Source: a virus
Length of the DNA: 64,000 nt
Virus record (IMG/VR): IMGVR_UViG_3300025131_000014
Coordinates: 1-64,000 of that record
Reading direction: 5' to 3' (one strand)
Shown: positions 1 to 24,198 of the stretch, piece after piece
How the letters are laid out: the number at the start of each line of letters is the position of its first letter
Position numbering within the stretch: position 1 is the first letter of the stretch
The notes under the pieces: generated by a model
Database searches by the model: none
Told to the model about the DNA's origin: nothing
Seen by the model: only the letters and a program-made list of their open reading frames with translations
Program-made: the position numbers and the translations under genes

Positions 1-76
1 TGGCACGGTGCTCTTAAGACAAAAGACCTATAACCAATAGGCATCGTGTTATATATTATAGCACAATCATTAAATT

Positions 77-403
77 AGCACAAGCAAAGTCGTTACGAAA
101 GAATCTCGAGTTTGTTACCATCTCAAGACCCAACGGGCCAAAGGACTAGTGTGTGAGGGAAAGTTAGTATTAAATATGATGTACATTGTATTTAATCACC
201 TAGACGAGCAACCTACAAGAGATTGTAGTGATGCCATGACTCGCTGCTATAATAAGAGCAATCTTTAGCGGGACAAGTACTATGTTAGTCACACGAAGGG
301 AAACCATAAGTCGTAATTATGAGAGTGAGTAAACAGATAGCAAATGTTTTTTTGTTGGTCAGTGTTCTGAAAGGATACTGTAGGCTTTGCTGTGCTTCTT
401 TTT
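77..403 (+). ncRNA. Candidate structured ncRNA, ~320 nt, family unknown
   Basis: No ORF of 60 aa or more. Closing stem AGCACAAGCAAAGTC (77-91) / GGCTTTGCTGTGCT (383-396) followed by a T-tract. Internal hairpins include CTACAA-GAGA-TTGTAG and AGTGTTCT-GAA-AGGATACT. Confidence 0.55.
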
Positions 404-470
404 GATATTAACAGAAAACAATCGCTTTGTAATCCTGTTAATATGTATACATTAACAGCAAATAGGTGAG

Positions 471-495
471 ATATAAGGCTAGACTAGCCTTATAT
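471..495. repeat. Perfect 12-bp inverted repeat
   Basis: ATATAAGGCTAG-A-CTAGCCTTATAT in non-coding DNA. Confidence 0.8.
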
Positions 496-735
496 TCTTT
501 ACCTTTATAATATTGTAGTAAGTTAGGCATAAGAGTAAGGAGTAGATAGTAGGCTTTTTATATAGATATTCTGATTTATTATCAGTAGTATTTATTTGGA
601 GGCGTAACCTTAGAGGCGGTTTTAACGAATTCTGTTCTCTTATTGTGATTAGCAATAACTGCAATAAGATGCAAGTTTATAATTGTGTCTTTCTTATTAC
701 ATTTTTTTATTTCTTTACCTTTTAAATCTTTAATT

Positions 736-975
736 ATGAAAAACCGATCATTTAAAGAAGCAATTGTAGTTATGTTTATTATAATTTCTACACCTTTTAG
801 TGTAGTACTTGTAACTAAACTATTTGCATTGTTTGTAGGAGTATTATTCGGTTGGCATCACTATCAAGTGATAGTAGGACAACCAGGTGTGTGGGTTCTT
901 GCAACATTTGCAGGGTTATTTGCACATATTTTATTAGTAACAGCCTATCTAGAAGATAGGTATAATTCAAACTAA
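736..975 (+). CDS. Small membrane protein (2 TM), hypothetical
   Basis: ORF 685-975; ATG at 736 after an AT-rich leader is the more likely start; two hydrophobic segments. Confidence 0.6.
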   Translation: MKNRSFKEAIVVMFIIISTPFSVVLVTKLFALFVGVLFGWHHYQVIVGQPGVWVLATFAGLFAHILLVTAYLEDRYNSN

Positions 976-1145
976 TGGAACGTTATATTAAAACATATTA
1001 TGTTCCTTCTTTTGATAAGATACATAAGTTTACAAACAAACTTGTAGCACTAAAGTATCTTAGAACACACGATCTAGACCGAAGTAGTTTATATATTCAT
1101 AAACAACCTGCACCACCTGTAGGATTTATGTTTCCTTCTAGATAA
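975..1145 (+). CDS. Hypothetical protein, 56 aa (below track cutoff)
   Basis: TAATG coupling; MERYIKTYYVPSFDK... Confidence 0.55.
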   Translation: MERYIKTYYVPSFDKIHKFTNKLVALKYLRTHDLDRSSLYIHKQPAPPVGFMFPSR

Positions 1146-1179
1146 TTTTTATATTTTTCACCTTTAAAAACCGATAATT

Positions 1180-1374
1180 ATGAGTAAAACAACAGTAATA
1201 GATCTGTCTATTAATCGTAGACAAATTACTCTCAAAAGAGAGTGGTATAAAGGACTTGCTTTTGGATTTGTAATTCAAAATGATTACAGAGATGTTGAAA
1301 TAATTTTCATACTTCCTTTTATAGCTATACAGCTAGAAATTGAGAAGTCACCATCAAATGGTAAGTATTTATGA
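1180..1374 (+). CDS. Hypothetical early protein
   Basis: ORF preceded by the TTTAAAAACCGAT motif. Confidence 0.7.
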   Translation: MSKTTVIDLSINRRQITLKREWYKGLAFGFVIQNDYRDVEIIFILPFIAIQLEIEKSPSNGKYL

Positions 1375-1487
1375 TTACGATCAAGAATAAGTATTTGTAT
1401 TGGGTAGTAGTTATTACATTATTTGTGATAGCTAACCCAATAACGATACTTGCTTTATTTTTATATGGAGCAAGTCAAGGAATGTAA
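1371..1487 (+). CDS. Small hydrophobic peptide, 38 aa
   Basis: ATGA overlap with the previous ORF; YWVVVITLFVIANPITILALFLY. Confidence 0.5.
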   Translation: MITIKNKYLYWVVVITLFVIANPITILALFLYGASQGM

Positions 1488-1523
1488 GTTATAATATCGT
1501 AACTTTATAAATTATAAATAACT

Positions 1524-2260
1524 TTAGGTTCTGTGAAGATACAGGACACTGAGGGGATGAAATATGCGGTTTAGCGCGATAACTCTAGCAATAGAGTATA
1601 AAGACACTGCGAGGGTTATAGAGCTCTTTCTTTGTTGCCATAGCAATATGGTCAATCTAAACACATGAGTATACAGGAACAATGGGGAAATCCTTAGCGT
1701 TTCTATTTTGATGCCCAATCAGAATTGAGTCAGCGATGACAATAGATATACTTGTAGGGGTGGTTTCGATCAGATTTTATCAGTCTAGGAGGAGTACACT
1801 TCAGTACAACGATATGCTCTTGAGTATAACTCTGTACCGTGATGTTGATAGCATTACAAATAACAGTTAAGTATTTTGTTCTTCAAAAGAGAATGAAGCT
1901 TATCCAAAGGAGCTGTTATTCAATTGGGAAGTCTTTCAAAAGAAAGCAAAATTACTTTGGCGTTATTCATCGAAAGATGGCTAATACTATGCACTTCGGT
2001 GAACATAGTGCTTCAGTTACTCGCAAGGTAGCTGTTGTTTGGATCAGAAAGGTCAAATATGAGGTGGCCGCCTTATAATTGAACTAATTATGATTTGAGT
2101 AGGTGATGACGTTAAGAATGATTGGCTTTACCAATCGCCATTGGCAGTTACTTTGTGCAAACAGAGTGGATATGTTAGTAACCACCTTGACAGGATGGAA
2201 TAAGCTAATTAAAGACTGACCAGATAGGGCTGTAATCTCAGGCTATACCTATCACTTTTT
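1524..2260 (+). ncRNA. Large structured ncRNA, probably GOLLD-type (~730 nt)
   Basis: GC-elevated gap between genes. Hairpins CATC-GAAA-GATG (1968-1979), CAC-TTCG-GTG, CAGTTAC...GCAA...GTAGCTG (2014-2034) and GATTGG-CTTTA-CCAATC (2120-2136). 3' GTAATCTCAG (2232-2241) before a T-tract resembles my recollection of the GOLLD 3' half. Confidence 0.65.
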
Positions 2261-2286
2261 TATTATTTACCTTTAAAACCGATCAA

Positions 2287-2412
2287 ATGAAAAAATTATT
2301 AAACAAAGTATGGACATGGGTAGATGCAAATGATACTAGAAAGTATAATACATTTACCATATTTGTAATATCTTTAACAATTGCCTTAATCTATACAACT
2401 ATAGTATTATGA
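2287..2412 (+). CDS. Small membrane peptide, 41 aa
   Basis: Preceded by TTTAAAACCGAT; ATGA overlap with the next gene; hydrophobic C-terminus. Confidence 0.55.
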   Translation: MKKLLNKVWTWVDANDTRKYNTFTIFVISLTIALIYTTIVL

Positions 2413-2666
2413 AGGAGTATAAAGATATAAATCCGTTATCAGTTGTTGATAATGTGCTTAAAGAAGCATCTGAATGGAATTTAACAGCTGAAGTAGTGTT
2501 ATTTGCACTTAAAATAATAAAAGATAACCCTGAATTAGATCCTTTAACAGCTTTGTTCATTTCAAGAGATGAGTGGGATGTAGCTTCACAAATGCAAGCT
2601 GAAAGAACACATGAACAAGAAACAGAGCTTACTAATCCAATAACTAAAATAGTTAATAAGTTTTGA
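2409..2666 (+). CDS. Hypothetical protein
   Basis: ORF track, coupled to neighbours. Confidence 0.7.
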   Translation: MKEYKDINPLSVVDNVLKEASEWNLTAEVVLFALKIIKDNPELDPLTALFISRDEWDVASQMQAERTHEQETELTNPITKIVNKF

Positions 2667-2944
2667 GTAGATATACTATATATAAGGGCAATTTAGAATT
2701 TGTATATGGATATGATTTTCCATTACAAGAATATTTTTATCAAATATTTGATCACGATATTGATGACGCTGACCAACAGCTAATTGAATGGAAGTCTAAT
2801 AGAACAGACTATATGGCGAGAGACTACTATGCTAAAGGATTAACTTTAGCAGAAATAGCATTGAAGTTTCACCAATTTGGTGTACCGAAAAATGTAGTAG
2901 ACTGTGTATCGTTAGGCATTCCTATTCCAGATAGTAGTTATTAA
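2663..2944 (+). CDS. Hypothetical protein
   Basis: ORF track, TTG start overlapping the upstream stop. Confidence 0.7.
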   Translation: MSRYTIYKGNLEFVYGYDFPLQEYFYQIFDHDIDDADQQLIEWKSNRTDYMARDYYAKGLTLAEIALKFHQFGVPKNVVDCVSLGIPIPDSSY

Positions 2945-2954
2945 AAATTTAACG

Positions 2955-3062
2955 TTTGGATTTGGTTGAAATTCCAAGAGAGAGTCTCATAACCTCTTTC
3001 TAAAATGCACTCATGGAGAAACCTTCACGTGGTGAGTGTGATAGATGCATTTTTATGCATTG
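2955..3062 (+). promoter_or_regulatory. Structured leader upstream of the 179-aa gene
   Basis: AAAATGCA.../...TGCATTTT enclosing CACTCA...TGAGTG, plus an upstream TTGGA/TCCAA hairpin. Confidence 0.4.
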
Positions 3063-3106
3063 ACTAATTCTTCTTTTTATATTTTTTAATTTTTAAATCT
3101 TTAACT

Positions 3107-3646
3107 ATGAATGCAGAATTCGTAAATGAGGGCCAACAAATTAAGTTGGTAGGGATTGCTCTTTCGAGTAATCCAAATGCTACAGTACTTGATGACGAGG
3201 GTACTAACGGTATTAAAGGTCTTGGTGGTAAAATCAATGAGACCAGTGATGGAAGGAAATATTACCTTGCAATTTTTCAAGATTTGGATAATCCGTTCCA
3301 AGCAACTAGATTCAGAGTGATCAGTCAACAATTTGACAGCTCTGGAAATTCTATTTGGAAAGGCGGAGATCCTAGTCAGATCAAAAATTATGTTGGTAAA
3401 GCACTTCCAGGTGCAATTGTAACTAAACAGGTAGAACCTTATCCAGTTACATCACAGGATGGAACAACTAGAACAGTTGATTCATATACTGCGGTTGCAC
3501 TTAAAGGTGAGAACATCGTCCAGTTGTTCAGCAGAGCAGGTCATGAACTAGCGGGAGCTAGTGCTGATACCAGTTCTGAAACATCTACTCCTGATATTGA
3601 GTTAAGCCCTGAAGCTACGGCTGAATTGGGTGCGACTAATATCTAG
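3107..3646 (+). CDS. Hypothetical protein with acidic tail (possible nucleic-acid-binding protein)
   Basis: 179-aa ORF, beta-rich core, acidic low-complexity C-terminus, followed by its own terminator. Confidence 0.8.
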   Translation: MNAEFVNEGQQIKLVGIALSSNPNATVLDDEGTNGIKGLGGKINETSDGRKYYLAIFQDLDNPFQATRFRVISQQFDSSGNSIWKGGDPSQIKNYVGKALPGAIVTKQVEPYPVTSQDGTTRTVDSYTAVALKGENIVQLFSRAGHELAGASADTSSETSTPDIELSPEATAELGATNI

Positions 3647-3662
3647 TAGTTGTTGAGAGATA

Positions 3663-3722
3663 TATAGAGCTAGGTTAGTACTTCGTTACAGTTAAACTAA
3701 CCTAGGCTCTATAATCTTTTTA
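3663..3722 (+). terminator. Intrinsic terminator-like hairpin
   Basis: TATAGAGCTAGGTTAGT...ACTAACCTAGGCTCTATA followed by a T-tract. Confidence 0.7.
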
Positions 3723-3744
3723 TTTTTTAATCTTTAAAACCGAT

Positions 3745-4383
3745 ATGATTATGAAAAAGTGGATAATAGAATTTTTAATATCTCCTGTAGTATTTAGCAT
3801 ATTAGCTACAATATTTATACTATGGGTATTATCATTTACAGCTTGTGGCTGTAAGAAAAGACCTGCTACTCCAATATTAACTTCTACTGTTAAGATGGAT
3901 CAGGCATTAACCTACGCAAAGGAAAATAAAATGGATACTACGGTAGCTATTTTTGTAGATTTTAGTCAACCTGCTTGGATGCAGAGAATGTCATTAGTGG
4001 ACTTACAGGCTAAAACAGTTTTAAGTAAAACTCAAGTTTCTCATGGAATGGGATTAGAGTTTAGTATTAAACCTCGTTTTAGTAATGTAAAAGAAAGTCA
4101 TTTATCTTCATTAGGTAAGTATAAAATAGGTGACAGAGGATGGAGTGTATGGGGTATCAATATAAAATATGTACTTCATGGACTTGAAAGTACTAATGAC
4201 AATGCTTTTGATAGGAATATAGTATTACACTCATGGGAAGTAATTCCTGATAATCAGAGAGTAAGAAAACCTAGGTCTGCTGCTCAAGGTTATGGATGTC
4301 CTGCTGTATCAAATGCATATATGCAGACATTAGATAAAGTATTAAGAGGTAGGAAGAGTGTGCTTTTGTGGATCTATAAATAG
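3745..4383 (+). CDS. Membrane-anchored murein L,D-transpeptidase (YkuD_2-like)
   Basis: N-terminal TM segment; VSHG, FSN...SSLG, LHGLE..NDNA..RNIVLH and catalytic GYGCPAV motifs. Confidence 0.85.
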   Translation: MIMKKWIIEFLISPVVFSILATIFILWVLSFTACGCKKRPATPILTSTVKMDQALTYAKENKMDTTVAIFVDFSQPAWMQRMSLVDLQAKTVLSKTQVSHGMGLEFSIKPRFSNVKESHLSSLGKYKIGDRGWSVWGINIKYVLHGLESTNDNAFDRNIVLHSWEVIPDNQRVRKPRSAAQGYGCPAVSNAYMQTLDKVLRGRKSVLLWIYK

Positions 4384-4386
4384 ACA

Positions 4387-4438
4387 AGAAAGAAAAGATT
4401 TGGAACATTTAATAGTGAATGTTCTTATCTTTTTTTTT
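4387..4438 (+). terminator. Intrinsic terminator
   Basis: AAGA...GAACATTT/GAATGTTC...TCTT stem followed by T9. Confidence 0.65.
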
Positions 4439-4482
4439 AATTATTTAACATTTTAATTATTTAACATTTTAATTGGTTTAAC
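4437..4482. repeat. 16-bp tandem repeat, ~2.8 copies
   Basis: TTAATTATTTAACATT twice, then degenerate TTAATTGGTTTAACAT running into the ATG at 4483. Confidence 0.7.
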
Positions 4483-4653
4483 ATGAATATGGATTGGACA
4501 TTTTATAATGATAAGGGACAAAATTTTAATGTTTGGATGAATCGTCCTAATGCTGATGTATTACTTGAAGCTTTAAATAAGACAGAAGCAAGGTCTTCAA
4601 ATCAATTTTGGTCACTTGTTACTACTGAGGAATATATAAACAAAATAATATGA
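4483..4653 (+). CDS. Hypothetical protein, 56 aa
   Basis: Open frame MNMDWTFYNDKG...; ATGA overlap with the next gene. Confidence 0.55.
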   Translation: MNMDWTFYNDKGQNFNVWMNRPNADVLLEALNKTEARSSNQFWSLVTTEEYINKII

Positions 4654-4925
4654 TAGGTAAATATAGTATGGCGGACTTTAAAACAGTCCATAATGCCCTT
4701 CATTCAGACAGAACGTTTGTAGTAATTGGAGGGAAGAAGTATGAAATAATGAAACGTTCTAACAACTGTAGAGCTGTCAAATTAGATGGTGGTCCTATGG
4801 TTATGGAACAAAACAAGACAAAGAACTCGAGTTATGCGGAAAGAGCCAGAAATGGAGAGCATATTAGTTGGATTATGAAAGGTCCGTCCTGGGGTTATAT
4901 TGATGACAAAATAATACGATTATGA
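4650..4925 (+). CDS. Hypothetical protein
   Basis: ORF track. Confidence 0.75.
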   Translation: MIGKYSMADFKTVHNALHSDRTFVVIGGKKYEIMKRSNNCRAVKLDGGPMVMEQNKTKNSSYAERARNGEHISWIMKGPSWGYIDDKIIRL

Positions 4926-5026
4926 AACAATTAATAGAATGGTTTGAAATAGGTTCTACATTGTTTGTAGTTATGATGGCTATCTTTACGATAGTTGTTA
5001 TACTAGATCATGCAGGATTGTTTTAA
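4922..5026 (+). CDS. Small membrane peptide, 34 aa
   Basis: ATGA overlap; one hydrophobic stretch. Confidence 0.45.
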   Translation: MKQLIEWFEIGSTLFVVMMAIFTIVVILDHAGLF

Positions 5027-5042
5027 AAAAAATTAGTAAATT

Positions 5043-5240
5043 ACATGTGAACGATTATCTCTTAAGACGACATAGGCACTCAAGCAGTCATATATGTTTA
5101 TAGTTTCCATGGGTAACTGGGTTACCTACTGTATGGATGATAAGTCCAACAGTCTGTGTAAGCTTCTTAAACATCTATATCACTCAAAGGGATCTCTAAA
5201 CCGCTTTTAAGTGTAAAGGATAATCTTCATGTGTTTTTTT
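5043..5240 (+). ncRNA. Candidate ~190-nt rod-shaped ncRNA (6S-like architecture)
   Basis: ACATGTGAACGATTATCT / GGATAATCTTCATGT closing stem, CTTAAGA/TTTTAAG, a central bubble, ATATATGTTTA/TAAACATCTATAT, then T7. Confidence 0.55.
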
Positions 5241-5248
5241 AAAATGAA

Positions 5249-5554
5249 ATGAATATGATAAAGTTTAATCATAAAGATGACTCTTATTTTGGGGCTTTAG
5301 GGGTCTCAATAAAAAGATTTGAAGAAATTCAAGATATATTCAAGAAAAATATTACTTCTGTATCCAGAATAGGAACTAAATCTATGGGAGTAGAGAAACT
5401 TCTTGAAATAATTAATCCTAAAAATGCGTCTGAAATCTTTGTAATAGGAATATTAATGGGAGGATATGATGCACATGCTGTAATGTACCGAAAAATGGTA
5501 GATGATATGCGAGATAAATTTAAAATAAAAGGTGATAATATTGATGATTTTTAA
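5249..5554 (+). CDS. Hypothetical protein
   Basis: ORF track. Confidence 0.75.
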   Translation: MNMIKFNHKDDSYFGALGVSIKRFEEIQDIFKKNITSVSRIGTKSMGVEKLLEIINPKNASEIFVIGILMGGYDAHAVMYRKMVDDMRDKFKIKGDNIDDF

Positions 5555-5604
5555 TTGTTAATGTTATTATTTATTAAGTAACTTATAAAACTAAAACTAT
5601 AAAA

Positions 5605-6102
5605 ATGAAGAATTTAGTCAATAGATTGGAAAAACTTAAATCATTTTCTGATAATCTTAGAAGTAAGATTGAAGATCTTAATGATCAAAATGGTTATTTA
5701 GAAAGTATAGATGAGATTGCAAAACTTGCATTAGAGAATAAAGATGCACAAGTAAAGATTAAGGTAATGTTTGAAGTAGAATATCCTGAAGCTATTAGAG
5801 AAAATATAGACCCTGAAGGAGGAACAGCTCAATCTTTATTAGAAACTTTATGTGGGTCTCAAGATCCTGAAGCATTTACTAAAAACCTAGGTATGTTAAG
5901 ACATAAGATAGGAGGAGGTGATGTAGGAAAAGGACAAAAGGTTAATTTATCTAAAACTGTAAGATTAGATAATCTAGACAATATTGTGTTTTTAAGTATA
6001 TTAACTAATGTTTATCAAGAAGTTAAGAAACATAATACTACTGAACAGATTAAAATTATGAAAATTATTGAACGTCAAGAAAGTAAATTAAAAGTAGAAT
6101 AA
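5605..6102 (+). CDS. Hypothetical coiled-coil protein
   Basis: ORF track; heptad-rich N-terminus. Confidence 0.75.
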   Translation: MKNLVNRLEKLKSFSDNLRSKIEDLNDQNGYLESIDEIAKLALENKDAQVKIKVMFEVEYPEAIRENIDPEGGTAQSLLETLCGSQDPEAFTKNLGMLRHKIGGGDVGKGQKVNLSKTVRLDNLDNIVFLSILTNVYQEVKKHNTTEQIKIMKIIERQESKLKVE

Positions 6103-6734
6103 TGGGTATGGATATATATGGTATTAAACCAATTAAACTTATTGCAGATAGTATAGAACCAATTCGGCCTTTAGATGAGGCAAATGATAAAGAGTGGAGT
6201 ATCTATCTGAAAGCTCAGGATAAATATAGAGAAGAAGTAGAACCTGGGCAATATTTTAGAGCTAATGTATGGGCATGGAGGCCTATACATGCTATGTGTG
6301 TTGTAGTTAATTCTGCATGTGACTTAAAGCTTAATATGCATAATTGGGAAAATAATAGTGGAGCAGGACTTGATACTCAAGAAGAGTGTACTAAACTAGC
6401 TGATGGGATTGAAGATGAAATGAAAATCTTTGAAGCTCAAGGAATCGGTAAAGTATATTTAGATGGAGGAATGTATTGTAAAATAAAAGGTGTAGATAGT
6501 ACAGCTTTAGGAATTGGAGATAGTGAATTTGTAACTAAAGAAGAAGAGGTGGGTAAATATAAAGAAGCAATACAGTATCTAAAGAGTCAAGGAGCATATG
6601 CAACAAAGCCTTATTTAATAGAAGATTCTAAAGATGAGTATGTTCTTATTGAACCTGCGTATTCAGTCTATCTTTCACATATTAGGGATTTTGTTAGATT
6701 TTTGCGAAATTGTGGTGGCTTTGAGATTTGGTAA
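6102..6734 (+). CDS. Conserved phage hypothetical protein
   Basis: MGMDIYG...YFRANVWAWRP...FLRNCGGFEIW pattern typical of a widespread uncharacterised phage family. Confidence 0.8.
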   Translation: MGMDIYGIKPIKLIADSIEPIRPLDEANDKEWSIYLKAQDKYREEVEPGQYFRANVWAWRPIHAMCVVVNSACDLKLNMHNWENNSGAGLDTQEECTKLADGIEDEMKIFEAQGIGKVYLDGGMYCKIKGVDSTALGIGDSEFVTKEEEVGKYKEAIQYLKSQGAYATKPYLIEDSKDEYVLIEPAYSVYLSHIRDFVRFLRNCGGFEIW

Positions 6735-6737
6735 GGG

Positions 6738-6995
6738 ATGGCACGGAAGGGAAAAAAGCAAGTATTCTATTTAGATCACATGGATAAAATTATTCATATA
6801 TCAGTTAAAGACGGAATGGCTACAGTAGACAAATGTCCAAAGGGATGTGTTATACTTATTAAAGATTATGATACTCAAGATACTGACGGATCTGTACATA
6901 AAAAGTATAAAGATGCAGATGGAGAGTATACTCTTGAAATAGTTGATTATGTTAATGTTAATTTTATAGAAAAGGAAGATGAAAAAAGTAAGTAA
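6738..6995 (+). CDS. Hypothetical protein
   Basis: ORF track. Confidence 0.7.
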   Translation: MARKGKKQVFYLDHMDKIIHISVKDGMATVDKCPKGCVILIKDYDTQDTDGSVHKKYKDADGEYTLEIVDYVNVNFIEKEDEKSK

Positions 6996-7072
6996 TGTTT
7001 ATTATAAATTCGAAACTTGGTTTAATAGAAAGTTTTGGATGTATTTAGTGAGTCCTAATAAAATGGAAGAGT

Positions 7073-7297
7073 ATGTCAAAAGGAATGTCAGCAAATAAAA
7101 ATTTAGGAGGACTTCATAATCTTACTATTACTAAGAAAAGTGTAGTAGATCTTAAAGAAGCTTTAGATAAAGCTTTATTACTTGGAGAGACTAAGTTTAA
7201 ATTCCAAAATTTACAAGTTACAACAGTTTATGCTCAATATATTATAAGATATTATGGAGAAGAAGGGAAACAAAAAAGGAATATTAGGTACCGTTAA
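7073..7297 (+). CDS. Hypothetical protein
   Basis: ORF track. Confidence 0.6.
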   Translation: MSKGMSANKNLGGLHNLTITKKSVVDLKEALDKALLLGETKFKFQNLQVTTVYAQYIIRYYGEEGKQKRNIRYR

Positions 7298-7406
7298 ACA
7301 AGTTATTGTTTTTTCGTGGTATACTTTTTTAATTTTTGTTACTCTGCTCTTTATGTTATTTTTTTTATTAGGTAGTGGATTAGTCGCCCTAGTGCGGCGA
7401 AAGTGA
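7254..7406 (+). CDS. Small membrane peptide, 50 aa
   Basis: MEKKGNKK...VIVFSWYTFLIFVTLLFMLFFLLGSGLVALVRRK. Confidence 0.5.
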   Translation: MEKKGNKKGILGTVKQVIVFSWYTFLIFVTLLFMLFFLLGSGLVALVRRK

Positions 7407-7510
7407 TAATCTTTATTGTTTGTTAATGTTACGAGATTCTTTCTAAACAATAAAGAAGGAGGATGTCTTCTATGCTGTTAGGCATCCTCCGCACTTTCTA
7501 AATTTAAATT

Positions 7511-8146: not shown

Positions 8147-8150
8147 TGTT

Positions 8151-16506: not shown

Positions 16507-17547
16507 ATGCAAGAGAGAATTGTAAAAACCAAAATGTATGGCAAAGATGAAATCTTTAAAGTACTAGCTTTAGGAGAAGCTTTAAAACTTCCTGTATTAT
16601 TATTAGGCCCTCCAGGTGTTGGTAAAACCCAAGCTTTGTTGGACTATGCAACTGCCATTTATGGTGATAAAGAAGAAGCTTTACAAAAGAGCTTTATAAT
16701 TGAATTGGACGAAGGAACTAAAACTTCTGAAGTTAAAGGTAGAGTAAATATGAAGACTCTTCTGGAAGATAAGAAATATGAAGTAGAGGCTCCTATAGCT
16801 GATGCTGAATATATTTTATTAAATGAAGTTGATAAATGTAATTCTGGAATCAGAAATACTATGTTGTCATTAATGAGGGAAAAAACTCTTTTCTTTGGAG
16901 ATAAAGTAATTCCATGTAAATGGAAAGTTTTAGCTGCAAGTTGTAATGAGATTCCTGATGATGAATCAGATAGTCCTTTTTGGGATAGATTTGTGCTTAC
17001 CTATAAGGTAGAACGTGTTGGTATAGATGGTATTGTTAACTATTGGAAAGATATGAAGATGAAAGATGTGAGTATTAATATTCCTTCAGGTAGAGAAATT
17101 ATAGGAACTCAAATTCATAAATCTAAAGTAGAAACCATGTTAAATGTTGTCTATGATGCTACTTCTGATAGAACTGCTTCTTATTTACCGACTGTTGCTA
17201 AAGCAGTTAAAGCAATATATGGTTTAGAAGATGTTGAAGCTCTTATGAAGACATGCGAATTTGTATGTCCTACTAAAGTAGCTGATCTTTCTGGTAAACT
17301 AGAGACTGCACGGGTTGCATCTTTAAGAAGTCAAATTAAATCTTTAGGTACTGTTATAAATGGTAATGATAAGTCTTATGCTCAAATGTATTTAACTCAG
17401 TTAATTACAGATATCAAAGAATTAGGTGAAATGACTACCTATAAAAAGAAATCTGGTGAATTAATGGTTGAATTACAGGACTATATAGGTGAAAACTATG
17501 CAGGAACAGAGCATGAAGAAATTTTTGATAAAGAAAATACTGAATAA
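16507..17547 (+). CDS. MoxR/RavA-type AAA+ ATPase
   Basis: LLLGPPGVGKT, LLNEVDK, ASCNE, FWDRF. Confidence 0.88.
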   Translation: MQERIVKTKMYGKDEIFKVLALGEALKLPVLLLGPPGVGKTQALLDYATAIYGDKEEALQKSFIIELDEGTKTSEVKGRVNMKTLLEDKKYEVEAPIADAEYILLNEVDKCNSGIRNTMLSLMREKTLFFGDKVIPCKWKVLAASCNEIPDDESDSPFWDRFVLTYKVERVGIDGIVNYWKDMKMKDVSINIPSGREIIGTQIHKSKVETMLNVVYDATSDRTASYLPTVAKAVKAIYGLEDVEALMKTCEFVCPTKVADLSGKLETARVASLRSQIKSLGTVINGNDKSYAQMYLTQLITDIKELGEMTTYKKKSGELMVELQDYIGENYAGTEHEEIFDKENTE

Positions 17548-19029
17548 ATGGATAAAAATTATACAACATATAGTTATGAAGATGGCTATGGCTATGGGGA
17601 TTATGTAGATCCCTATAGCAGCCAAGCTAATTCAAATTCGTATGAGTATCAAGCAAGTTTGTTTGATGTAAATACAATATTTCGGGATATGAAACAAGAT
17701 GATTGTATCATTGATCCTTCTATACGTAGTTATTTATCTGATAAAGTACTACGTTTAGTAAAAAAGAGTATTAAGGGAGATTGCTTTATGGAAGATAAGC
17801 ATATACTTGATATATTTAAGTATTTCTATAAAGCATATAGTCATATAGTAAATGTAACTCCTAATGATTATCACTGGCATTATTTGTTAAGTAAGATGGA
17901 TAATTGGTTATTGAAGACTATAACTGATTCTAGAGTACTTTATAGTGTCCTTACAACTATTGCAATATGTAAAAAGTTTAACACTATATTGCAGAAGTTT
18001 CAGACTGATGTTTGTCAAACACAATGGGCTTTAAGAGATTTTGTGAGTAAAGAAGGATTGTGGGAAGCAGTTAAAGACTCTTTTGATGGTAAATCTTTTA
18101 TGCCATATTATTGTGGAGGAGATGATGAAAAGAATGAAAGAGATACTATTAAGAACTTAACTTTACAGCTCAAAGATAAACTTGAGAAAGGTATTCAAAG
18201 TGGAATTCGTCAGGCTAAAAAGGATATTGATAAATATCGTGAGTTTATGGGAAATTCTGTAGGTGATACTATAGCTGAATTGGATTACATAGATGTATAT
18301 CTTGATCCTGCTATTATGAAAGCTGTAGCTGTAAGTGGTAAGTCTATTAATAAGTTTGTTGATAAAGTAATTGATTCTTCTACTGAATCTTTGGGAGGTG
18401 TTCCTAAGGTTTATCAGGAGAGTATCTTTGAAGCAGAGGAGATTGATGAGATAGAAGGGATAGAGAATTTGATTCATCCTGCTCTTTATAGAGATCTGTT
18501 TGTTAAGACTACTAAGTATCATATGAACTTTGATGTTTATCTTGATGATAGTGCTTCTATGACAGGTACGTGTTCTTTAGGAAACAATAAGAGTATTAGA
18601 CAAAGACTTTTAGTACGTTTTATTGCTCTTAAATTGCATAAATTAGGAATGCTTAGAGATATTTATCTTTTTGATCAATCTTTGAGAAAAATTAATTTTG
18701 CTAATCTGCTTACTGCTCGTTTAGGCGGTGGAACTGATTTTACGCAAATAATTAAAAATATCAAAAAGATAGGAAGACCTGGAATTATCATTACAGATGG
18801 TCATGCAAGTATGAATGAATTTTCTGAAAAAGCTTATATGATAAATATATCAGGAGTTGGAGGATATTGTAGTTCTCTTTATAATAAGAGTGTTCCTTTA
18901 GCTAAAATGGTTGCTAAAAATAAGTATGTGTATTGGGATGATGGTAAGTTTTATCATTCTAAAATTGTAGAACACAATGGTAGTTATGATAGCAAGTATT
19001 ATTATATAGAACAAGGAAGAAAATTTTAA
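17548..19029 (+). CDS. vWA-domain protein (ViaA-like MoxR partner)
   Basis: MIDAS-like DDSASM, GGTDF, ITDG. Confidence 0.85.
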   Translation: MDKNYTTYSYEDGYGYGDYVDPYSSQANSNSYEYQASLFDVNTIFRDMKQDDCIIDPSIRSYLSDKVLRLVKKSIKGDCFMEDKHILDIFKYFYKAYSHIVNVTPNDYHWHYLLSKMDNWLLKTITDSRVLYSVLTTIAICKKFNTILQKFQTDVCQTQWALRDFVSKEGLWEAVKDSFDGKSFMPYYCGGDDEKNERDTIKNLTLQLKDKLEKGIQSGIRQAKKDIDKYREFMGNSVGDTIAELDYIDVYLDPAIMKAVAVSGKSINKFVDKVIDSSTESLGGVPKVYQESIFEAEEIDEIEGIENLIHPALYRDLFVKTTKYHMNFDVYLDDSASMTGTCSLGNNKSIRQRLLVRFIALKLHKLGMLRDIYLFDQSLRKINFANLLTARLGGGTDFTQIIKNIKKIGRPGIIITDGHASMNEFSEKAYMINISGVGGYCSSLYNKSVPLAKMVAKNKYVYWDDGKFYHSKIVEHNGSYDSKYYYIEQGRKF

Positions 19030-19031: not shown

Positions 19032-19253
19032 ATGACCAAGTATGAACAAATTATGTATGAGAGAGATCTGCCTGGGATTAGAAGATCCCTTGAAAGTATA
19101 GCAGAAACTCTAAAAGCAATAGTAGTAATTATCTCCGATCCAGGAGATGAAGTAGAACATATTGTTGATTACCCTGCAGAAATGAGCAAGGTATGGGGTG
19201 ATAAAACTACAAATTCAACAGGTAAGTTACCTGATGATTATACAATGGATTGA
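19032..19253 (+). CDS. Hypothetical protein
   Basis: ORF track. Confidence 0.65.
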   Translation: MTKYEQIMYERDLPGIRRSLESIAETLKAIVVIISDPGDEVEHIVDYPAEMSKVWGDKTTNSTGKLPDDYTMD

Positions 19254-19395
19254 GAAACTCCAATGGGAGACTATATAGAGATTAGCATAGCAGGTAAGTA
19301 CTGCATAGCTAAGTCTCATATATAGCTCCCTATACGGAGAGTTCGTAGGATTCATTGCGGGCATAAAATAGAGCTAACAATTCTTTAACCTCTCA
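19251..19395 (+). ncRNA. Candidate structured RNA, ~145 nt
   Basis: Long bulged hairpin GGGAG-ACTATATA-GAGATTAGC...GCTAAGTCTC-ATATATAG-CTCCC, closed by TGAGA/TCTCA. Confidence 0.5.
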
Positions 19396-19458: not shown

Positions 19459-20013
19459 ATGAGTACAATAACAGAAATTGAACAAGAGGCTCTTATTGAG
19501 CTTATTTTAAAAGTATTGCGTCTTTCACAGAATGGGCATGTAAGTCCTTTTGAAAATAAAATTGCTGAAGAGCTAATAGCAATTGATAAAACTTTACAAG
19601 CTACTTACTTAAGGATAAATGGTATTGAAACTTTTCTTGGTTCTTTAAATACGAGATTATCTAATCTTGAAAAGAAGAACTTTGAAATACTTCCTGCAAA
19701 GGAAGGATCTGATTTTGATATAGATAAGGAAAAACTTCCAGTTCAAGGTAAAAAGAGAGGTCCTTATACTACTACTAAAAAGATAGCTAAGAAAATTGAG
19801 CAGATATTAACATCTGCTAAACATTTTACTAAACAACAGATTTTGGATGAAGTAGCACGTAAGAGACCAGATTTAAATACTTTAAGTGGAAAGAGCATGC
19901 TGGAAAATATCAGAAAGGCTAAATGGAGACTTGATGGAATTAGACGTAGAGACCTTAAATTAGGAATTTATGGAACTGAAGGCTATTGGAAGAAGAGAAA
20001 GACGAAGAAATGA
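19459..20013 (+). CDS. Basic hypothetical protein (possible DNA-binding)
   Basis: ORF 19411-20013; ATG at 19459 is the more likely start; K/R-rich C-terminus. Confidence 0.75.
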   Translation: MSTITEIEQEALIELILKVLRLSQNGHVSPFENKIAEELIAIDKTLQATYLRINGIETFLGSLNTRLSNLEKKNFEILPAKEGSDFDIDKEKLPVQGKKRGPYTTTKKIAKKIEQILTSAKHFTKQQILDEVARKRPDLNTLSGKSMLENIRKAKWRLDGIRRRDLKLGIYGTEGYWKKRKTKK

Positions 20014-21170: not shown

Positions 21171-21680
21171 ATGAAAAATGAAGAATTTGATAATCTTAAT
21201 AGTGAAGATTCTGAGTTTCAGAAGAAGGTAGTTAAGTTTGTACTTGCTACTTATGAGAAACATAAAAAACATTTACCTCCTTCTTTATTTGTTAAATCTG
21301 GAGATGGTGTTTATAAAATACATCCTATTCCTCCTCATTTATTTGAGCAACAGAATGGTGAACAGATCATAGCAGACGGTGTTAATACTATTATTACTGA
21401 TTATGATGCAAGCCATGCTTGTTTTGCTTCAGAGTGTTGTTATGCTAAAGTAAAGGCAAATAATGCTGATGCTATTAAAAAAGCTGTTGAAGAAGGTATA
21501 GATAATGTTGAAGGAGCACAGCAATGTGTAGTTCTTTCTTTTGAAAGTAAAAAAGCAGAAGAAAAATATTTTTATAGGTTTCTGATAACAGAAGAACAAA
21601 AGCTTCAGATAGAAGAACTTAAAGAGTATACAAATAAGGATGGAGAGAATAATTTAATAATAAATTTATTCAGAAAATGA
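21171..21680 (+). CDS. Hypothetical protein
   Basis: ORF track. Confidence 0.75.
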   Translation: MKNEEFDNLNSEDSEFQKKVVKFVLATYEKHKKHLPPSLFVKSGDGVYKIHPIPPHLFEQQNGEQIIADGVNTIITDYDASHACFASECCYAKVKANNADAIKKAVEEGIDNVEGAQQCVVLSFESKKAEEKYFYRFLITEEQKLQIEELKEYTNKDGENNLIINLFRK

Positions 21681-23578
21681 TATATTTTATTGGAAATCAG
21701 GGAATACTACCTTGTTGTGAAACAGCAACTATAGAAGATGTAGTAATTTGGTGTTATGACACACCTAATAAAGTCATGGGAGTAGATACTGAAACTGAAG
21801 GTCTTAATTGGCTTTCAAAGAAGGTAATTATGCTTCAATTAGGAGATGAGAAGGACCAGTTTGTGATAGACACACGGTTTATAGATATCTCCTTACTTAA
21901 GGCTCCTTTAGAGGATCCTAGTATTACAAAGATTTTGCATAATGCGAAGTTTGATTATAAGTTCATGCTTTCTAACTTCGATATCCGTATAGATAATATA
22001 TATGATACTTTGTTAGCTGAATGTGTGCTTAATTGTGGGCGTCAAGGAGTTTCTAAAGGACTAGCTGATTTAGTAGGTAGATATTTAGATATTAAGTTAA
22101 GCAAGGAAACTAGAGACCAATTCCACACAATGCGGGATGGCGTACCGTTTACTGAGTCCCAGATTATTTACGGGGCTAAAGATGTGGAATACTTGCCGAT
22201 GATCAAGGGATTTCAGGACTATGCAGTGTCATCCTGGGATTTGGAATATGTGCTTGATATTGAGAACAGAGCAACTATAGCATTTGCTGAAATAGAGAAC
22301 AATGGGATCAAGTTAGATCGTGATAAGTGGCTTGGTTTAGCTATTAATGCAGAAGGCCGTTTAGAGGGCAAAGAAGATGAGTTAGATGATATAGTATTGA
22401 AAGACAACGACTTACGTAAGTATAAGAGTCCAGGAGTTCAGCTTGGGATGTTCGGCGTCAAAGAAAAACATACTACGGTCCTGTGGTCTTCACCGTCACA
22501 GGTGCAGAATGTACTTCAAACACTTGATCCTAGTATACAATCAACTGGTGTAAGAGAGCTCTTTAAAAGACAGAACTTTCATAAGCTCTTTAAGAGCCTT
22601 ATAGATTATCGTAAAGAGGCTAAATTAGTGACTACTTATGGGAGAGAGTTTGTTAAGTATATAAAGAAGGAAACAGGTAGGGTACATACTATTTTTTGGC
22701 AGATCTTAAACACGGGGCGTGTCTCGAGTGGGTCTAAAGGTGGTCGTTACTTTGAAGACTATCCTAATATGCAGAATATTCCTGCTTTGAGCGAATATAG
22801 AAATTGTTTTATAGCTGAAGAAGGTTGTAAAATCGTAAGCTTTGATTTTAGTGGTCAAGAGTTACGCCTTATCGCAGAGGGTGCCCAGGATCCGTTGTGG
22901 ATTAAAACCTTTAATGAAGGTGGAGATGTACATGGGGAGGTTGCTGCAATGGTCTTTGATATAGAGGTGGCTGATGTGAGAAATAAACCAGACTTTTTAC
23001 GAGGAAAATCATATAGGGATGTAGCTAAGACCATTAATTTCGGGCTTGCGTATGGAATGTCAGAGCATAAGCTTGCTGATACTCTTGATATTCCTGTAGA
23101 AGATGCGAAAGCTTTTATTGATAAGTATTTTATAGCGTTGCCTAAGATCAAGAAGTTCTTAGAAGCTTTAGGTAATTATGGTAAGAAGAATAAGCATATA
23201 CGGACTTTTAAACCATCAAGAAGAATAAGATTCTTTCCTGATGATGTCTATCTAAGTCAGATGGATAGGAAAGAGATGTTTAGAACTCTTGGTGAAATAG
23301 AGCGACAATCTAAAAATACTCCTATTCAGGGAACTGGAGCGGATATGATTAAGCTTGCTTTAGCTAAGATTGTAGAGTATATTAGGGAGAATGATCTATG
23401 GGACAAAGTAAAGCTTATTACACAGGTTCATGATGAGATAGGTTGTGAGGTGAAAGAAGAGTATGTAGAACAATGGTTACCTGTACAGCAACGTTTAATG
23501 GAGGAAGCAGGTGCTGAATTTGTTAAATCAATGAAAATGACCGTTGATGCGTCTGTTTCTGATGTTTGGAAAAAATAG
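21677..23578 (+). CDS. polA: Family A DNA polymerase with 3'-5' exonuclease
   Basis: DTETEG, HNAKFD, YGAKD exonuclease motifs; DFSGQELR (A), RDVAKTINFGLAYG (B), QVHDE (C). Confidence 0.96.
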   Translation: MIYFIGNQGILPCCETATIEDVVIWCYDTPNKVMGVDTETEGLNWLSKKVIMLQLGDEKDQFVIDTRFIDISLLKAPLEDPSITKILHNAKFDYKFMLSNFDIRIDNIYDTLLAECVLNCGRQGVSKGLADLVGRYLDIKLSKETRDQFHTMRDGVPFTESQIIYGAKDVEYLPMIKGFQDYAVSSWDLEYVLDIENRATIAFAEIENNGIKLDRDKWLGLAINAEGRLEGKEDELDDIVLKDNDLRKYKSPGVQLGMFGVKEKHTTVLWSSPSQVQNVLQTLDPSIQSTGVRELFKRQNFHKLFKSLIDYRKEAKLVTTYGREFVKYIKKETGRVHTIFWQILNTGRVSSGSKGGRYFEDYPNMQNIPALSEYRNCFIAEEGCKIVSFDFSGQELRLIAEGAQDPLWIKTFNEGGDVHGEVAAMVFDIEVADVRNKPDFLRGKSYRDVAKTINFGLAYGMSEHKLADTLDIPVEDAKAFIDKYFIALPKIKKFLEALGNYGKKNKHIRTFKPSRRIRFFPDDVYLSQMDRKEMFRTLGEIERQSKNTPIQGTGADMIKLALAKIVEYIRENDLWDKVKLITQVHDEIGCEVKEEYVEQWLPVQQRLMEEAGAEFVKSMKMTVDASVSDVWKK

Positions 23579-23582
23579 TTTT

Positions 23583-23848
23583 CCGAAATAGGAGTAGGAT
23601 GGGTCGACATAAAAAGGAGAATAAAGGTGGCCTTGTAAGTCCTTAAGGCTTGTAATTTCACATGAGCATGCAGAGCCGAGAGATTCTCCTTCTCTTATAG
23701 AATGAGACTATTCGGGCAGCTGAGTGGCTTAGAGGCGATTTCGTTGTAAAAAGAAACAGAATGATGAATGTGCGACTTCCCGTAACGAGGGTCATGGCCT
23801 GTCATCCTATACCTTATCGGTTGATCACGAATGGCTCATTCTTTTTTT
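23583..23848 (+). ncRNA. Candidate structured RNA after polA (element A)
   Basis: 23583-23608 pairs with 23791-23820; AAGGAGAAT/ATTCTCCTT; GAATGAGACTATTCG (23700) / CGAATGGCTCATTC (23828-23841) followed by a T-tract. Confidence 0.55.
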
Positions 23849-24090
23849 TAGTAATGTAAGTGACGCTGGTGTACACAGTTCTGGATTTAGGTTACCTGCA
23901 AAATGTTTGTCTGTGCTACGGCATGAAGATGATTAGATGTAAAATGAAAGCCCTAAGCGGAGTAGTGTGGAGAACGGAGGGAAGACTCCTGTATCTTGTA
24001 AGACCCACGGGTCAATATGAACTATATAGGTATACTGTTATATAGAGAAGACGGTCCATAAAGTTAAGTTACTGCATTACTAATTTTTTA
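23848..24090 (+). ncRNA. Candidate structured RNA after polA (element B)
   Basis: Closing TTAGTAATGTAAGTGAC / GTTACTGCATTACTAA plus T-tract; TGC-TACG-GCA and GACC-CACG-GGTC tetraloop hairpins. Confidence 0.55.
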
Positions 24091-24145
24091 GCACTTAGGA
24101 GGACAATATTGTCTGTAATTATGAGGATAAGGACTAAGTGTTATT

Positions 24146-24187
24146 GGGGAATAAGGTTAGTGTCTACGCTTTATTCCCCTTTTTTTT
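24146..24187 (+). terminator. Terminator at the convergence of the early/middle and late blocks
   Basis: GGGGAATAAGG...CTTTATTCCCC followed by T8. Confidence 0.85.
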
Positions 24188-24198
24188 AATTGCTTCAG

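Follow-up and report, generated by a model that had tools for sequence, protein, structure and literature searches.

The gene-free gaps of the early arm are real folded-RNA elements of a mixed nature, namely a GOLLD RNA, terminator plus start-signal boundaries and a handful of uncatalogued RNAs, which confirms only in part the earlier note that had viewed them as a single repertoire of regulatory or decoy RNAs, several of the blocks being ordinary terminator/start-signal junctions. The sequence analysed here (64,000 nt, hereafter the window) belongs to a marine crAss-like phage of about 90 kb (crAss_MUZ and CrAss_Ring_1 domains), whose replication genes are encoded on the + strand, to which the window's spacer elements described below are also assigned. 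To judge from sequence comparison, the uncatalogued folded RNAs are gained, lost and swapped among near-identical phages. We favour, with moderate confidence, a reading of the early arm as many short transcription units, the spacers of which would hold three kinds of elements on the transcribed strand, i.e., (i) a non-coding RNA island round the record ends, finishing in GOLLD (1489-2261), (ii) boundary cassettes, where an RNA stem would be followed by a U-run, an A/T-rich start box (TTTTTTAATTTTTAAA or ACCTTTAAAACCGAT) and a nearby ATG, and (iii) expanded boundary stems, predicted as 17-25 bp around 60-300 nt of folded sequence at no fewer than six sites (514-701, 5043-5240, 13126-13235, 19261-19339, 23699-23849, and 23849-24089), beside which a putative three-way junction before the gene at 7511 is counted.

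The seven ORF-free blocks originally reported are present and devoid of credible genes. Substitutions relative to G001, the close relative used for this comparison, show no third-position bias, with codon-phase counts of 12/10/11 in 77-403, 12/11/9 in 5043-5240 and 9/9/3 in 23697-23850 against 21/8/86 in the helicase and 31/20/136 in the polymerase as coding controls, and frameshifting indels are present in the blocks. Their elevated GC content holds as a modest rise (0.35-0.44 versus 0.327 in the early arm). The claimed high density of spacers stands relative to the phage's own late arm, which has no gap of at least 90 nt, but not relative to related phages, since the non-coding share of the early arm (14.5%) lies inside the range of polymerase-centred loci in 38 of them (1.4% to 19%); Cellulophaga phage phi14:2 reaches 24% over its first 15 kb. 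As for the T-tracts said to end the blocks, T5-T8 runs follow five of the seven (77-403, GOLLD, 5043-5240, 23583-23848, and 23848-24090) but not those at 13131 and 19251, and T6 or longer runs on the + strand number 15 in 3.5 kb of spacer versus 3 in 20.7 kb of coding sequence. The block 23583-23848 had to be divided into two modules (23588-23698 and 23699-23849), while a stem-closed fold (514-701), a covarying three-way junction (7399-7498) and hairpin/T-run junctions at 3654-3728, 4392-4438, 9401-9438, and 24146-24187 had been overlooked.

The block 1524-2260 is a bona fide GOLLD RNA (1489-2261; Rfam RF02032, 206.5 bits for a cut-off of 150, E = 7e-57, model positions 1-416 of 416), with a conserved 3' domain at 1859-2244, a variable 5' domain upstream and T6 at 2256-2261. 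The G001 copy (211.6 bits) is 95-96% identical to that of the window, the flanks being 72-81% identical, and related long phage records gave a sub-threshold match in just 1 of 26. GOLLD was the one block with an Rfam family; 5043-5240 (zero matches at E <= 10), 23699-23849 (zero matches), and 23849-24089 matched none. Upstream, 77-403 is predicted to fold into a branched structure of about 325 nt, in which 77-90 pair with 385-398 to form a closing stem of about 14 bp, and T5 comes next. Across three copies (window, G000 at 89929-90290, and G001), its 99 predicted pairs include 3 compensatory and few broken ones, one copy having a sub-hairpin deleted; its folding z is just -1.5 to -1.7 and coding periodicity is lacking. 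It sits within a stretch repeated at the opposite record end, where 89870-90316 is an 88.5% copy of window 1-455, and at 88-89 kb G000 carries a Pistol ribozyme (49.3 bits, cut-off 34.5) and a Hatchet-like one (48.5 bits, below the cut-off of 51). The block 77-403 is part of an RNA island wrapping the record ends, with the Pistol and Hatchet-like ribozymes, up to GOLLD. Next come two hairpins at 405-504 (one at 405-444, the other a perfect palindrome, 464-504, trailed by T-rich sequence), including a terminator-like site at 470-496, then a stem-closed multibranch fold of about 190 nt (514-708) followed by T7 and a start box before the ATG at 737. The z-score of 405-715 is -4.3, and the pairing of 513-540 with 672-701, which closes the multibranch fold, has p = 0.005 versus shuffles; 514-708 is absent from G001, where 506-1163 finds no homology.

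Most blocks are, as proposed, RNA-level structures of the transcribed (+) strand, as indicated by compensatory and G-U-type changes; compensatory change maintains pairing and the blocks are non-coding. Pairing is kept through such changes in 77-403, 5043-5240, 7399-7498, 23699-23849, and 23849-24089, a covariation that rests on two or three haplotypes with structures predicted from the same sequences, and one-sided changes give G-U pairs on the + strand where the other strand would have mismatches. The putative fold at 5043-5240 (about 198 nt) is closed by about 25 bp of helix (9+8+8 bp, including a bulge and an internal loop), its U7 tail ending 8 nt before the ATG at 5249; between two haplotypes, its 60-62 predicted pairs include 5 compensatory and 7 one-sided G-U-type changes and none broken, with identities of about 98% in the closing stem, about 70% in the interior and 90-97% in the flanking genes (z = -3.9/-2.7). 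For the three-way junction RNA of about 100 nt (7399-7498), ending 12 nt upstream of the ATG at 7511, predictions made separately for the window, L089 and G001 agree (z = -5.8, -4.6, and -2.7), 95.5% of cells being paired versus 44-56% in slid controls, with 7 compensatory pairs, a number reached by 7 of 500 shuffles; in L089, the next gene is missing from precisely here. Folding energy was low for five blocks on the + strand (z = -2.7 to -5.4) but for neither 77-403 (-1.7) nor 23848-24090 (-1.1), and it did not separate blocks from genes, since matched 120-nt coding windows average -0.97, 15% of them at or below -2.5, and do not differ from non-coding ones (p = 0.40). On the + versus the - strand, z is -3.9 versus -2.5 at 5043, -4.8 versus -1.9 at 13131, and -2.7 versus -0.4 at 23583. 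The long closing stems that had been noted do contain compensatory changes, but individually gain only modestly over shuffles (p = 0.02-0.14).

Phages of about 90% identity differ in inserts and in whole modules, the breakpoints lying at stems, T-runs and boxes. The long A/U-rich hairpin at 13126-13235 (z = -4.8/-3.9) has an outer stem of about 20 bp that is invariant in G001 and a tip of about 65 nt that is wholly replaced there, while L089 has the window's version (97% identity). At 19261-19395 (z = -5.4/-5.8), a 17-bp hairpin, the tip of which (about 30 nt) is replaced in G001, is accompanied by a second conserved hairpin, the next T-run occurring first at the 19434 box; both tip replacements are seen in a relative 90% identical. 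Further downstream, four modules are clustered at 23588-24187. M1 (23588-23698, z = -2.1) is a small stem-closed fold, the core of which (23607-23696) G001 lacks, while one population contig has 41 other letters in its place; run X11 shows a joint 23599>23724. M2 (23699-23849, z = -3.0), a predicted 150-nt fold with a 24-bp closing helix interrupted by three 1-nt bulges and a U8 tail, has its 44 pairs 100% paired in both phages, versus 36-51% in slid controls, which contain no compensatory pairs; its 5 compensatory pairs were reached by 12 of 500 shuffles. M3 (23849-24089), a 240-nt stem-closed fold with a T6 end, is present or absent as a unit: it is absent from G001, of the contigs in run X11, one passes from the M2 tail straight to 24084 and another has M3, and in run X6 it is preceded by TCTAACCTTTAAA, i.e., a different context. 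Despite a z of just -0.8 to -1.1, of 16 population substitutions in M3, 10 are pair-keeping (e.g., G-C to A-U at 23915/23922), 3 pair-breaking, 1 has its partner deleted and 2 are unpaired. M4 (24090-24187, z = -2.9, 95-96% identical in G001), located where the early and late arms converge, consists of a small stem-loop (24090-24143) and a canonical G+C-based terminator with U8 (24146-24187). M2-M4 have no gene downstream to regulate, which counts against the boundary reading.

The smaller cassettes comprise spacer hairpins at 2945-3106 (z = -2.6), with T6 (3082), after which the A/T start box TTTTTTAATTTTTAAA precedes the ATG at 3107; a 24-bp hairpin at 3654-3744 (z = -3.0; duplex p = 0.005 versus shuffles), then a T-run, the box ATCTTTAAAACCGAT and an ATG; a hairpin with T9 at 4392-4482, with the duplicated box TTAATTATTTAACATTTTAA (repeat family D10) before the ATG at 4483; and a canonical 14-bp hairpin and T6 terminator at 9401-9438, a start box coming next. 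In a covariance model built from M2, other early-arm hairpin/T-run elements rank right after M2 itself, 3654-3744 being the second-best match (20.4 bits). The start box has 8 matches versus 1.6 expected, 6 of the 8 at + strand junctions; sigma-70-type promoter matches are not enriched, and the T-runs could be part of a downstream promoter instead of a terminator. The stems are A/U-rich at their bases and far longer than those of typical terminators. Breakpoints relative to G001 or L089 fall at 1163, 2295, 4377, 7500, 19449, 23850, and 24084, i.e., at boxes, T-runs and module ends. Stem and U-run would make the polymerase stop or pause and protect the 3' end, the long double-stranded stems may be RNase III-type substrates freeing the enclosed fold as a discrete RNA, and the repeated boundary signals may act as recombination joints, like the PeSL cassettes of T4-type phages. 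Given the long double-stranded stems and the nearby ribozymes, processing of RNAs from early transcripts appears plausible.

That the folds are instead dedicated early effector RNAs (anti-defence sponges, polymerase decoys or antisense RNAs), with termination incidental, as originally suggested, we regard as unlikely. GOLLD and self-cleaving ribozymes do share the arm, M3 elsewhere directly follows a start box, as expected of a self-contained unit, and in phi14:2 early intergenic RNAs outnumber most mRNAs and last until late infection (10.1101/2020.03.07.982082). Evidence for such roles is otherwise confined to the tip of the 13131 hairpin, where 13171-13200 copies 39319-39348, a site within the virion RNAP gene, at 28 of 30 positions and would be complementary to its mRNA, but the relative's hairpin lacks this match; for the other blocks, the phage offers no complementary site, the uncatalogued folds do not resemble 6S, tRNA or tmRNA or a member of any Rfam family, no partner protein gene (e.g., reverse transcriptase or nuclease) was found, and several blocks are plain terminators. 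It is more doubtful still that mobile DNA of the miniature inverted-repeat type makes up the stem-closed modules, their closing stems being terminal inverted repeats and not RNA helices. The clean presence or absence of M1 and M3 in near-identical genomes and within one metagenome, the second context of M3, the TTTTTTAG on either side of it and its near-terminal inverted repeats would fit; yet the modules are each single-copy and mutually dissimilar, no transposase gene turned up, compensatory changes are present both in closing stems and in interior helices, G-U pairs make sense only in + strand RNA, and T-runs double as terminator or box sequences, so that a target duplication is not required to account for the flanking repeat.

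Phage N4 uses hairpin promoters for its injected virion RNA polymerase, and part of the signal, mainly 1-736, might likewise act at the DNA level, as such promoters, a replication origin or packaging/terminal sequences, which seems improbable here. This stretch sits where the record closes on itself and has perfect palindromes (425-455 and 470-496), 77-403 folds equally on both strands (z = -1.7 and -1.75), and the virion polymerase of phi14:2 copies denatured DNA, with no early promoter motif known (10.1101/2020.03.07.982082); on the other side stand the many G-U pairs and three compensatory pairs of 77-403 and the adjoining known RNA genes (Pistol, Hatchet-like, and GOLLD). We give equally little credit to the idea that, GOLLD aside, the gaps amount to A/T-rich spacers in which hairpins arise by chance and terminators are ordinary. 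Coding and non-coding z-scores are alike in the control scan, the non-coding share is inside the family range, and no homologues of the modules were found beyond near relatives (in 1.7 Mb of related loci, among GenBank phages, or by pattern scans of IMG/VR), but the compensatory changes, the 95-100% pairing versus 36-56% in slid controls, interiors that diverge faster than flanking genes yet stay paired, and a three-way junction predicted alike in three phages argue against it.

Arrays of ribozyme-associated RNAs (Pistol, Hatchet, and twister) in phage and metagenomic DNA were reportedly described by Weinberg and colleagues in 2015, as GOLLD is said to have been in 2009. With the former, the window shares the contiguity of 77-403 with the Pistol and Hatchet-like stretch, although its own blocks matched no self-cleaving ribozyme family in Rfam. 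With GOLLD (RF02032), 1489-2261 shares the full conserved 3' domain, the variable 5' part, phage carriage and a terminator-like T-run, whereas tRNA genes are absent nearby and its neighbour, here in a crAss-like phage, is an RNA island with ribozymes; the structure of GOLLD is a 14-mer nanocage (Kretsch et al., 2025, PMC12286853). The stem and U-run at transcription-unit ends are shared with intrinsic terminators and T7 RNase III hairpins, but intrinsic terminators have loops of 3-8 nt, whereas the loops here are replaced by 60-300 nt of branched structure on much longer, more A/U-rich stems, for which termination or cleavage is predicted. Phage T7 has RNase III processing hairpins between its early genes, and long, near-continuous double-stranded stems (17-25 bp here) between early genes are common to both. 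Phage phi14:2, likewise marine and crAss-like, has long gene-free gaps near the start of its rightward early arm, from which intergenic RNAs are strongly expressed early on, as measured by Drobysheva et al. (bioRxiv 10.1101/2020.03.07.982082); no sequence similarity to the window was found, one of its gaps has a near-threshold tmRNA match that the window lacks, and its gaps are transcribed early and strongly, whereas RNAs from those of the window are predicted. There is also a likeness in organisation to PeSLs, i.e., promoter-early plus stem-loop terminator cassettes of T4-type phages (Arbiol et al., 2010, PMC2839356; Comeau et al., 2014, PMC4122927), where the same composite of stem-loop/T-run and A/T-rich start signal is repeated between small early genes, with the same insertions, deletions and replacements among close relatives and breakpoints at the signals. 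Here, the phage order and the motif are different, the latter without a sigma-70-type consensus, the promoter and terminator roles are putative, and large folded inserts lie within the stems, which PeSLs are not described as having.

The virus record measures 90,316 bp, is estimated to be 97% complete, and its first 64 kb constitute the window. It is assigned to the crAss-like phages on account of the crassvirus muzzle and tail-ring domains encoded in the leftward arm, together with an open frame of 6,647 aa occupying 24199-44142 on the - strand. The rightward arm (685-23578) codes for helicases, a primase, an exonuclease, a RecT-like protein, a MoxR-type ATPase and a family-A DNA polymerase; it also encodes a protein with a YkuD-type L,D-transpeptidase domain (3745-4383, +; E = 1e-34) and, at 16507-19029 (+), the MoxR-type AAA ATPase followed by a 493-aa protein without family match. 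The last 447 bases of the record (G000 89870-90316, i.e., L007 9870-10316) are an 88.5% copy of window positions 1-455, with flanks 97% and 92% identical and a divergent middle, and the single close relative, G001, is continuous across the end-to-start point of the record. Since the ends match and G001 runs straight through, the record closes on itself and its ends correspond to population variants of one locus. It looks as if the assembly of a circular molecule had continued into a second haplotype, even though the record is given as linear in IMG/VR. A metagenome scan for relatives returned two close ones, namely L089 and L090, and the intermediate relatives P0002 (85%) and P0003/P0004 (60%) were left out of the comparisons. 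In a sequencing-run look-up, the public runs holding DNA of the phage were marine and vent metagenomes, with no RNA run listed among the holders.

Based on a hand-curated gene list, 3,506 of the 24,198 bases of the early arm (14.5%) are non-coding, while the gaps of the late arm all stay below 90 nt, which bears out the almost complete lack of intergenic space described there in the earlier note. The same holds for its seven gene-free and GC-raised blocks (77-403, 1524-2260, 5043-5240, 13131-13230, 19251-19395, 23583-23848, and 23848-24090), the GC content of which is 0.35-0.44 versus 0.327 for the early arm. These blocks are non-coding, i.e., their substitutions relative to G001 follow no codon periodicity and frameshifting indels are present, whereas in the helicase and polymerase genes substitutions are concentrated at third codon positions, as expected. 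On the + strand, runs of at least six T number 15 in spacers versus 3 in coding sequence, and T-tracts, ascribed to the ends of most blocks, terminate five of the seven and are lacking from the remaining two. The density of such blocks, claimed to be unusually high, is so with respect to the late arm of the phage itself but not to related phages, where the non-coding share in comparable loci ranges from 1.4 to 19% and reaches 24% in the first 15 kb of phi14:2.

When folding energies were compared with those of shuffles, as the earlier note had suggested, the blocks did not come out as no better than shuffles, with z of -2.7 to -5.4 for five of them, -1.7 for 77-403 and -1.1 for 23848-24090, but this test is weak here. 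The 120-nt coding windows of the early arm have a mean z of -0.97, with 15% at or below -2.5, and single long-range closing stems gave p = 0.02-0.14 against shuffles. As the coding-window control scores comparably, the z-score was dropped as a discriminator of the blocks and it is the comparative evidence that carries the argument. The strongest local fold of the early arm actually lies in coding sequence, where three adjacent strong hairpins occupy 9110-9250 (+) of the helicase gene 8151-9365 (MFE -46.9 kcal/mol; z = -6.0, and -9 in a coarse scan).

One of the blocks belongs to a catalogued family. Block 1524-2260 is a GOLLD RNA, as positions 1859-2244 (+) match Rfam RF02032 with 206.5 bits (gathering cut-off 150) over model positions 1-416 of 416, and the copy in G001 scores 211.6 bits. 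GOLLD is the best-conserved stretch of its region (95-96% identity to G001 versus 72-81% in the flanks) and is followed on its 3' side by a T6 run at 2256. Upstream of this 3' domain, 1489-1858, the candidate variable 5' domain that would lengthen the RNA to about 800 nt, is likewise gene-free, with a GC content of 0.37-0.39 and 95-97% conservation in G001. GOLLD RNA assembles into a 14-mer cage and its linkage to tRNA genes is frequent, though not obligatory (PMC12286853); no tRNA or tmRNA was found in the 64-kb window. None of 26 related long phage records reaches the GOLLD cut-off and a single one has a sub-threshold match (L142, from the 179.9-kb related virus record G021, 58681-59091, -; 121 bits over the full model length), so GOLLD is sporadic in the group and its status as a family trait was dropped.

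At the other end of the record, contiguous with block 77-403, an RNA island includes a Pistol ribozyme, scored at 49.3 bits (cut-off 34.5), as well as a Hatchet-like match that, with 48.5 bits, is below the cut-off of 51. The window adds to a crAss-like phage a GOLLD RNA neighbouring self-cleaving ribozymes instead of tRNAs. The fold of 77-403 can be compared over three copies, where its 99 predicted pairs include 3 compensatory and few broken ones, one sub-hairpin being deleted in one copy. Next to it, 405-736 comprises two hairpins and a further stem-closed fold (514-701), the latter absent from G001 (z = -4.3 for 405-715). For 1-736, roles at the DNA level are an alternative of low probability, namely as genome ends, as a replication origin or as hairpin promoters for an injected polymerase.

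The clearest uncatalogued fold is block 5043-5240, with a closing stem of about 25 bp and a U7 tail that stops 8 nt short of the next ATG. The interior of this fold is only about 70% identical between the two haplotypes, while the flanking genes are 90-97% identical; among its 60-62 predicted pairs, 5 changed in a compensatory manner, 7 underwent G-U-type changes and none is broken. A three-way junction missed in the earlier note (7399-7498) folds identically in three phages (z = -5.8, -4.6, and -2.7), with one arm altered at most positions yet paired, 7 compensatory pairs and 95.5% of the cells paired. In the long hairpins of 13131-13230 and 19251-19395, the outer stems are invariant and the tips (about 65 nt and 30 nt, respectively) are replaced by unrelated sequence in G001.

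In none of the searches did these unclassified folds show a homologue outside near relatives. Against Rfam 15, positions 1-25000 gave only GOLLD and chance snoRNA-type matches at E <= 1, and nothing credible emerged at E <= 10 in 23560-24210 or 5000-5260, riboswitches, 6S, ribozymes, tRNA-like elements, ROOL and raiA included. Positions 1-12000, 1-2300, 4926-5248, and 23579-24198 had no megablast or blastn match to GenBank phages, nhmmer queries with ten blocks retrieved G001 only from 80 related phage loci centred on the polymerase, and pattern scans of IMG/VR with the cores of M3 (23849-24089), 5043-5240 and the three-way junction returned nothing beyond G001 and a single contig that is identical to L089. 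A covariance model of the three-way junction revealed no second copy over 1.67 Mb. A retron-like reading was discarded, as no reverse transcriptase is present among the early-arm proteins.

The junction where the two arms converge (23579-24198) is a row of five elements. The first module, M1 (23588-23698), misses its core in G001, and M2 (23699-23849) possesses a 24-bp closing stem and U8. M2 is 100% paired in both phages with 5 compensatory changes, against 36-51% paired and none compensatory in controls where the pairing was recounted after shifting. M3, ending in T6, is absent from G001; the small stem-loop M4 (24090-24143) and a canonical terminator (24146-24187) complete the row. In population contigs, i.e., Logan contigs of four DNA runs, fragmented over 23600-24080 and interpreted in their covered parts, M3 behaves as a discrete unit: one metagenome run contains a contig joining the tail of M2 directly to 24084 as well as another contig carrying M3, and in a different run M3 stands behind TCTAACCTTTAAA, that is, in another context. 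Ten of its 16 population substitutions keep the predicted pairs, including a G-C to A-U exchange at 23915/23922. In the early arm at large, at least five lineage-specific folded RNAs keep their pairing while sequence and even presence turn over between near-identical phages.

Boundary signals recur between these elements. In each of the spacers 2945-3106, 3647-3744, 4384-4482, and 9366-9460, a hairpin and a T-run are followed by an A/T-rich box directly in front of the ATG. The box TTTTTTAATTTTTAAA occurs 8 times versus 1.6 expected, 6 of these at + strand early junctions, four early genes have another box, ACCTTTAAAACCGAT, in front of them, and further related phages also carry AACCTTTAAA with an ATG 2-14 nt behind it. 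At the same distance ahead of an ATG, the box (A)ACCTTTAAA(ACCGAT) occurs at 717-745, 1146-1182, 2262-2289, and 3723-3747 of the window, as well as in several distant relatives (loci L024, L066, L068, L070, L085, and L103), and is a candidate shared expression signal, acting either as a promoter that yields near-leaderless mRNAs or at the start of translation; sigma-70-like promoter matches are not enriched. Predicted intrinsic terminators with a short G+C-containing stem, a 3-8-nt loop and a U-run are found at 470-496 and 9401-9431 by consensus scan and at 24146-24187 by folding. The stem-closed modules 5043-5240, 23699-23849, 23849-24089, and 77-403 were rejected as intrinsic terminators given their enclosed loop of 100-300 nt and stem of 14-25 bp, and the consensus scan reports none of them although a U-run is present. 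Besides M2 itself, the M2 covariance model retrieved only generic long-stem/T-run elements. Next in rank after M2 came these hairpin/T-run spacers together with the hairpins at 13131 and 19251, what they share being a generic layout in which a long stem is joined to a U-run. The points where homology with G001 or L089 is interrupted, namely 1163, 2295, 4377, 7500, 19449, 23850, and 24084, are boxes, T-runs or module ends. Small early genes (2287-2412, 4483-4653, 7511-7684, and 19459-20013), each bordered by T-run/box signals or a folded module, are missing or replaced in G001 or L089, relatives 90-98% identical.

The interpretation of the blocks as a regulatory repertoire of decoy and antisense RNAs was half right, the observation behind it being largely right: RNA elements they are, but not of one class, and decoys found no evidence. 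A dedicated decoy or antisense arsenal is unlikely. Its only direct support comes from the tip of the 13131 hairpin, where 13171-13200 is a 28/30 copy of 39319-39348 inside the virion-RNAP gene and, as + strand RNA, would be antisense to the RNAP mRNA, but the version of this hairpin in G001 has no match to the RNAP gene. Among antisense targets sought for all blocks, only this match (13174-13200) was found; a third partial copy of the tip lies at 52619-52652 in the muzzle-protein gene.

Were the stem-closed modules miniature inverted-repeat transposable elements, their clean indels would be explained, as would the TTTTTTAG on both sides of M3, which also has near-terminal inverted repeats, the same T-runs being also terminator or box sequence. 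Such elements are nonetheless expected as dispersed copies and the modules are single-copy: apart from the terminal repeat and one 27-nt match, the blocks resemble neither one another nor any other part of the 90-kb genome. As compensatory changes are not explained either, this origin appears very unlikely. That the blocks are nothing but chance hairpins agrees with the z-score control, yet is at odds with the covariation counts, and is just as improbable as the transposable elements. What the blocks and spacers contain is better described as a further GOLLD RNA, boundaries that resemble PeSL cassettes and several folds that are lineage-specific and uncatalogued, and not as a new system.

Modules are gained, lost and replaced at boundary signals, and pairing is conserved in a strand-specific manner. 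In the functional scheme considered most likely, stem and U-run would terminate or pause transcription and protect 3' ends, double-stranded stems of 17-25 bp, which are unusually long, would be substrates of RNase III-type enzymes whose cutting would free the enclosed folds, and the repeated boundary signals would serve as recombination joints. In phi14:2, transcription of the long intergenic regions of the early arm exceeds that of most genes, and their RNAs last throughout infection (10.1101/2020.03.07.982082), by analogy with which discrete abundant RNAs from the folds are plausible here. One of these published abundant early non-coding RNAs may itself be tmRNA-like, since phi14:2 (KC821624) has an Rfam tmRNA match at 4031-4502 (+; 46 bits, cut-off 47, E = 1e-15) within a long early gap whose only annotations are tiny ORFs on the reverse strand. 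A bolder and rather doubtful proposal is that the long boundary stems would be a conserved docking frame for folded RNA cargo swapped between phages, with stem and U-run acting as both termination and recombination joint and RNase III-type cutting releasing the cargo as stable small RNA at the start of infection. If true, the cargos would amount to an arsenal of RNAs aimed at the host that evolves fast and can be swapped, and crAss-like phages would possess mobile RNA cassettes of a new class.

In both gut and sea, crAss-like phages rank with the most abundant viruses, yet little is understood of how they transcribe their early genes. The present work is a careful inventory and not a demonstrated new mechanism, but should their expression resemble that of the early RNAs in phi14:2, the folds would offer a compact test bed for the roles of structured RNAs in phages and for the way in which boundaries of terminator and start signal drive cassette exchange outside the T4 group. 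A known counterpart is the PeSL (promoter-early/stem-loop) cassettes of T4-type phages, in which stem-loop terminator and promoter form a composite that is repeated between small early genes; the early arm has a repeated composite of stem, T-run and box, in which terminator and promoter are putative. As described for those cassettes (PMC2839356), the indels and replacements that set close relatives apart have their breakpoints at the boundary signals.
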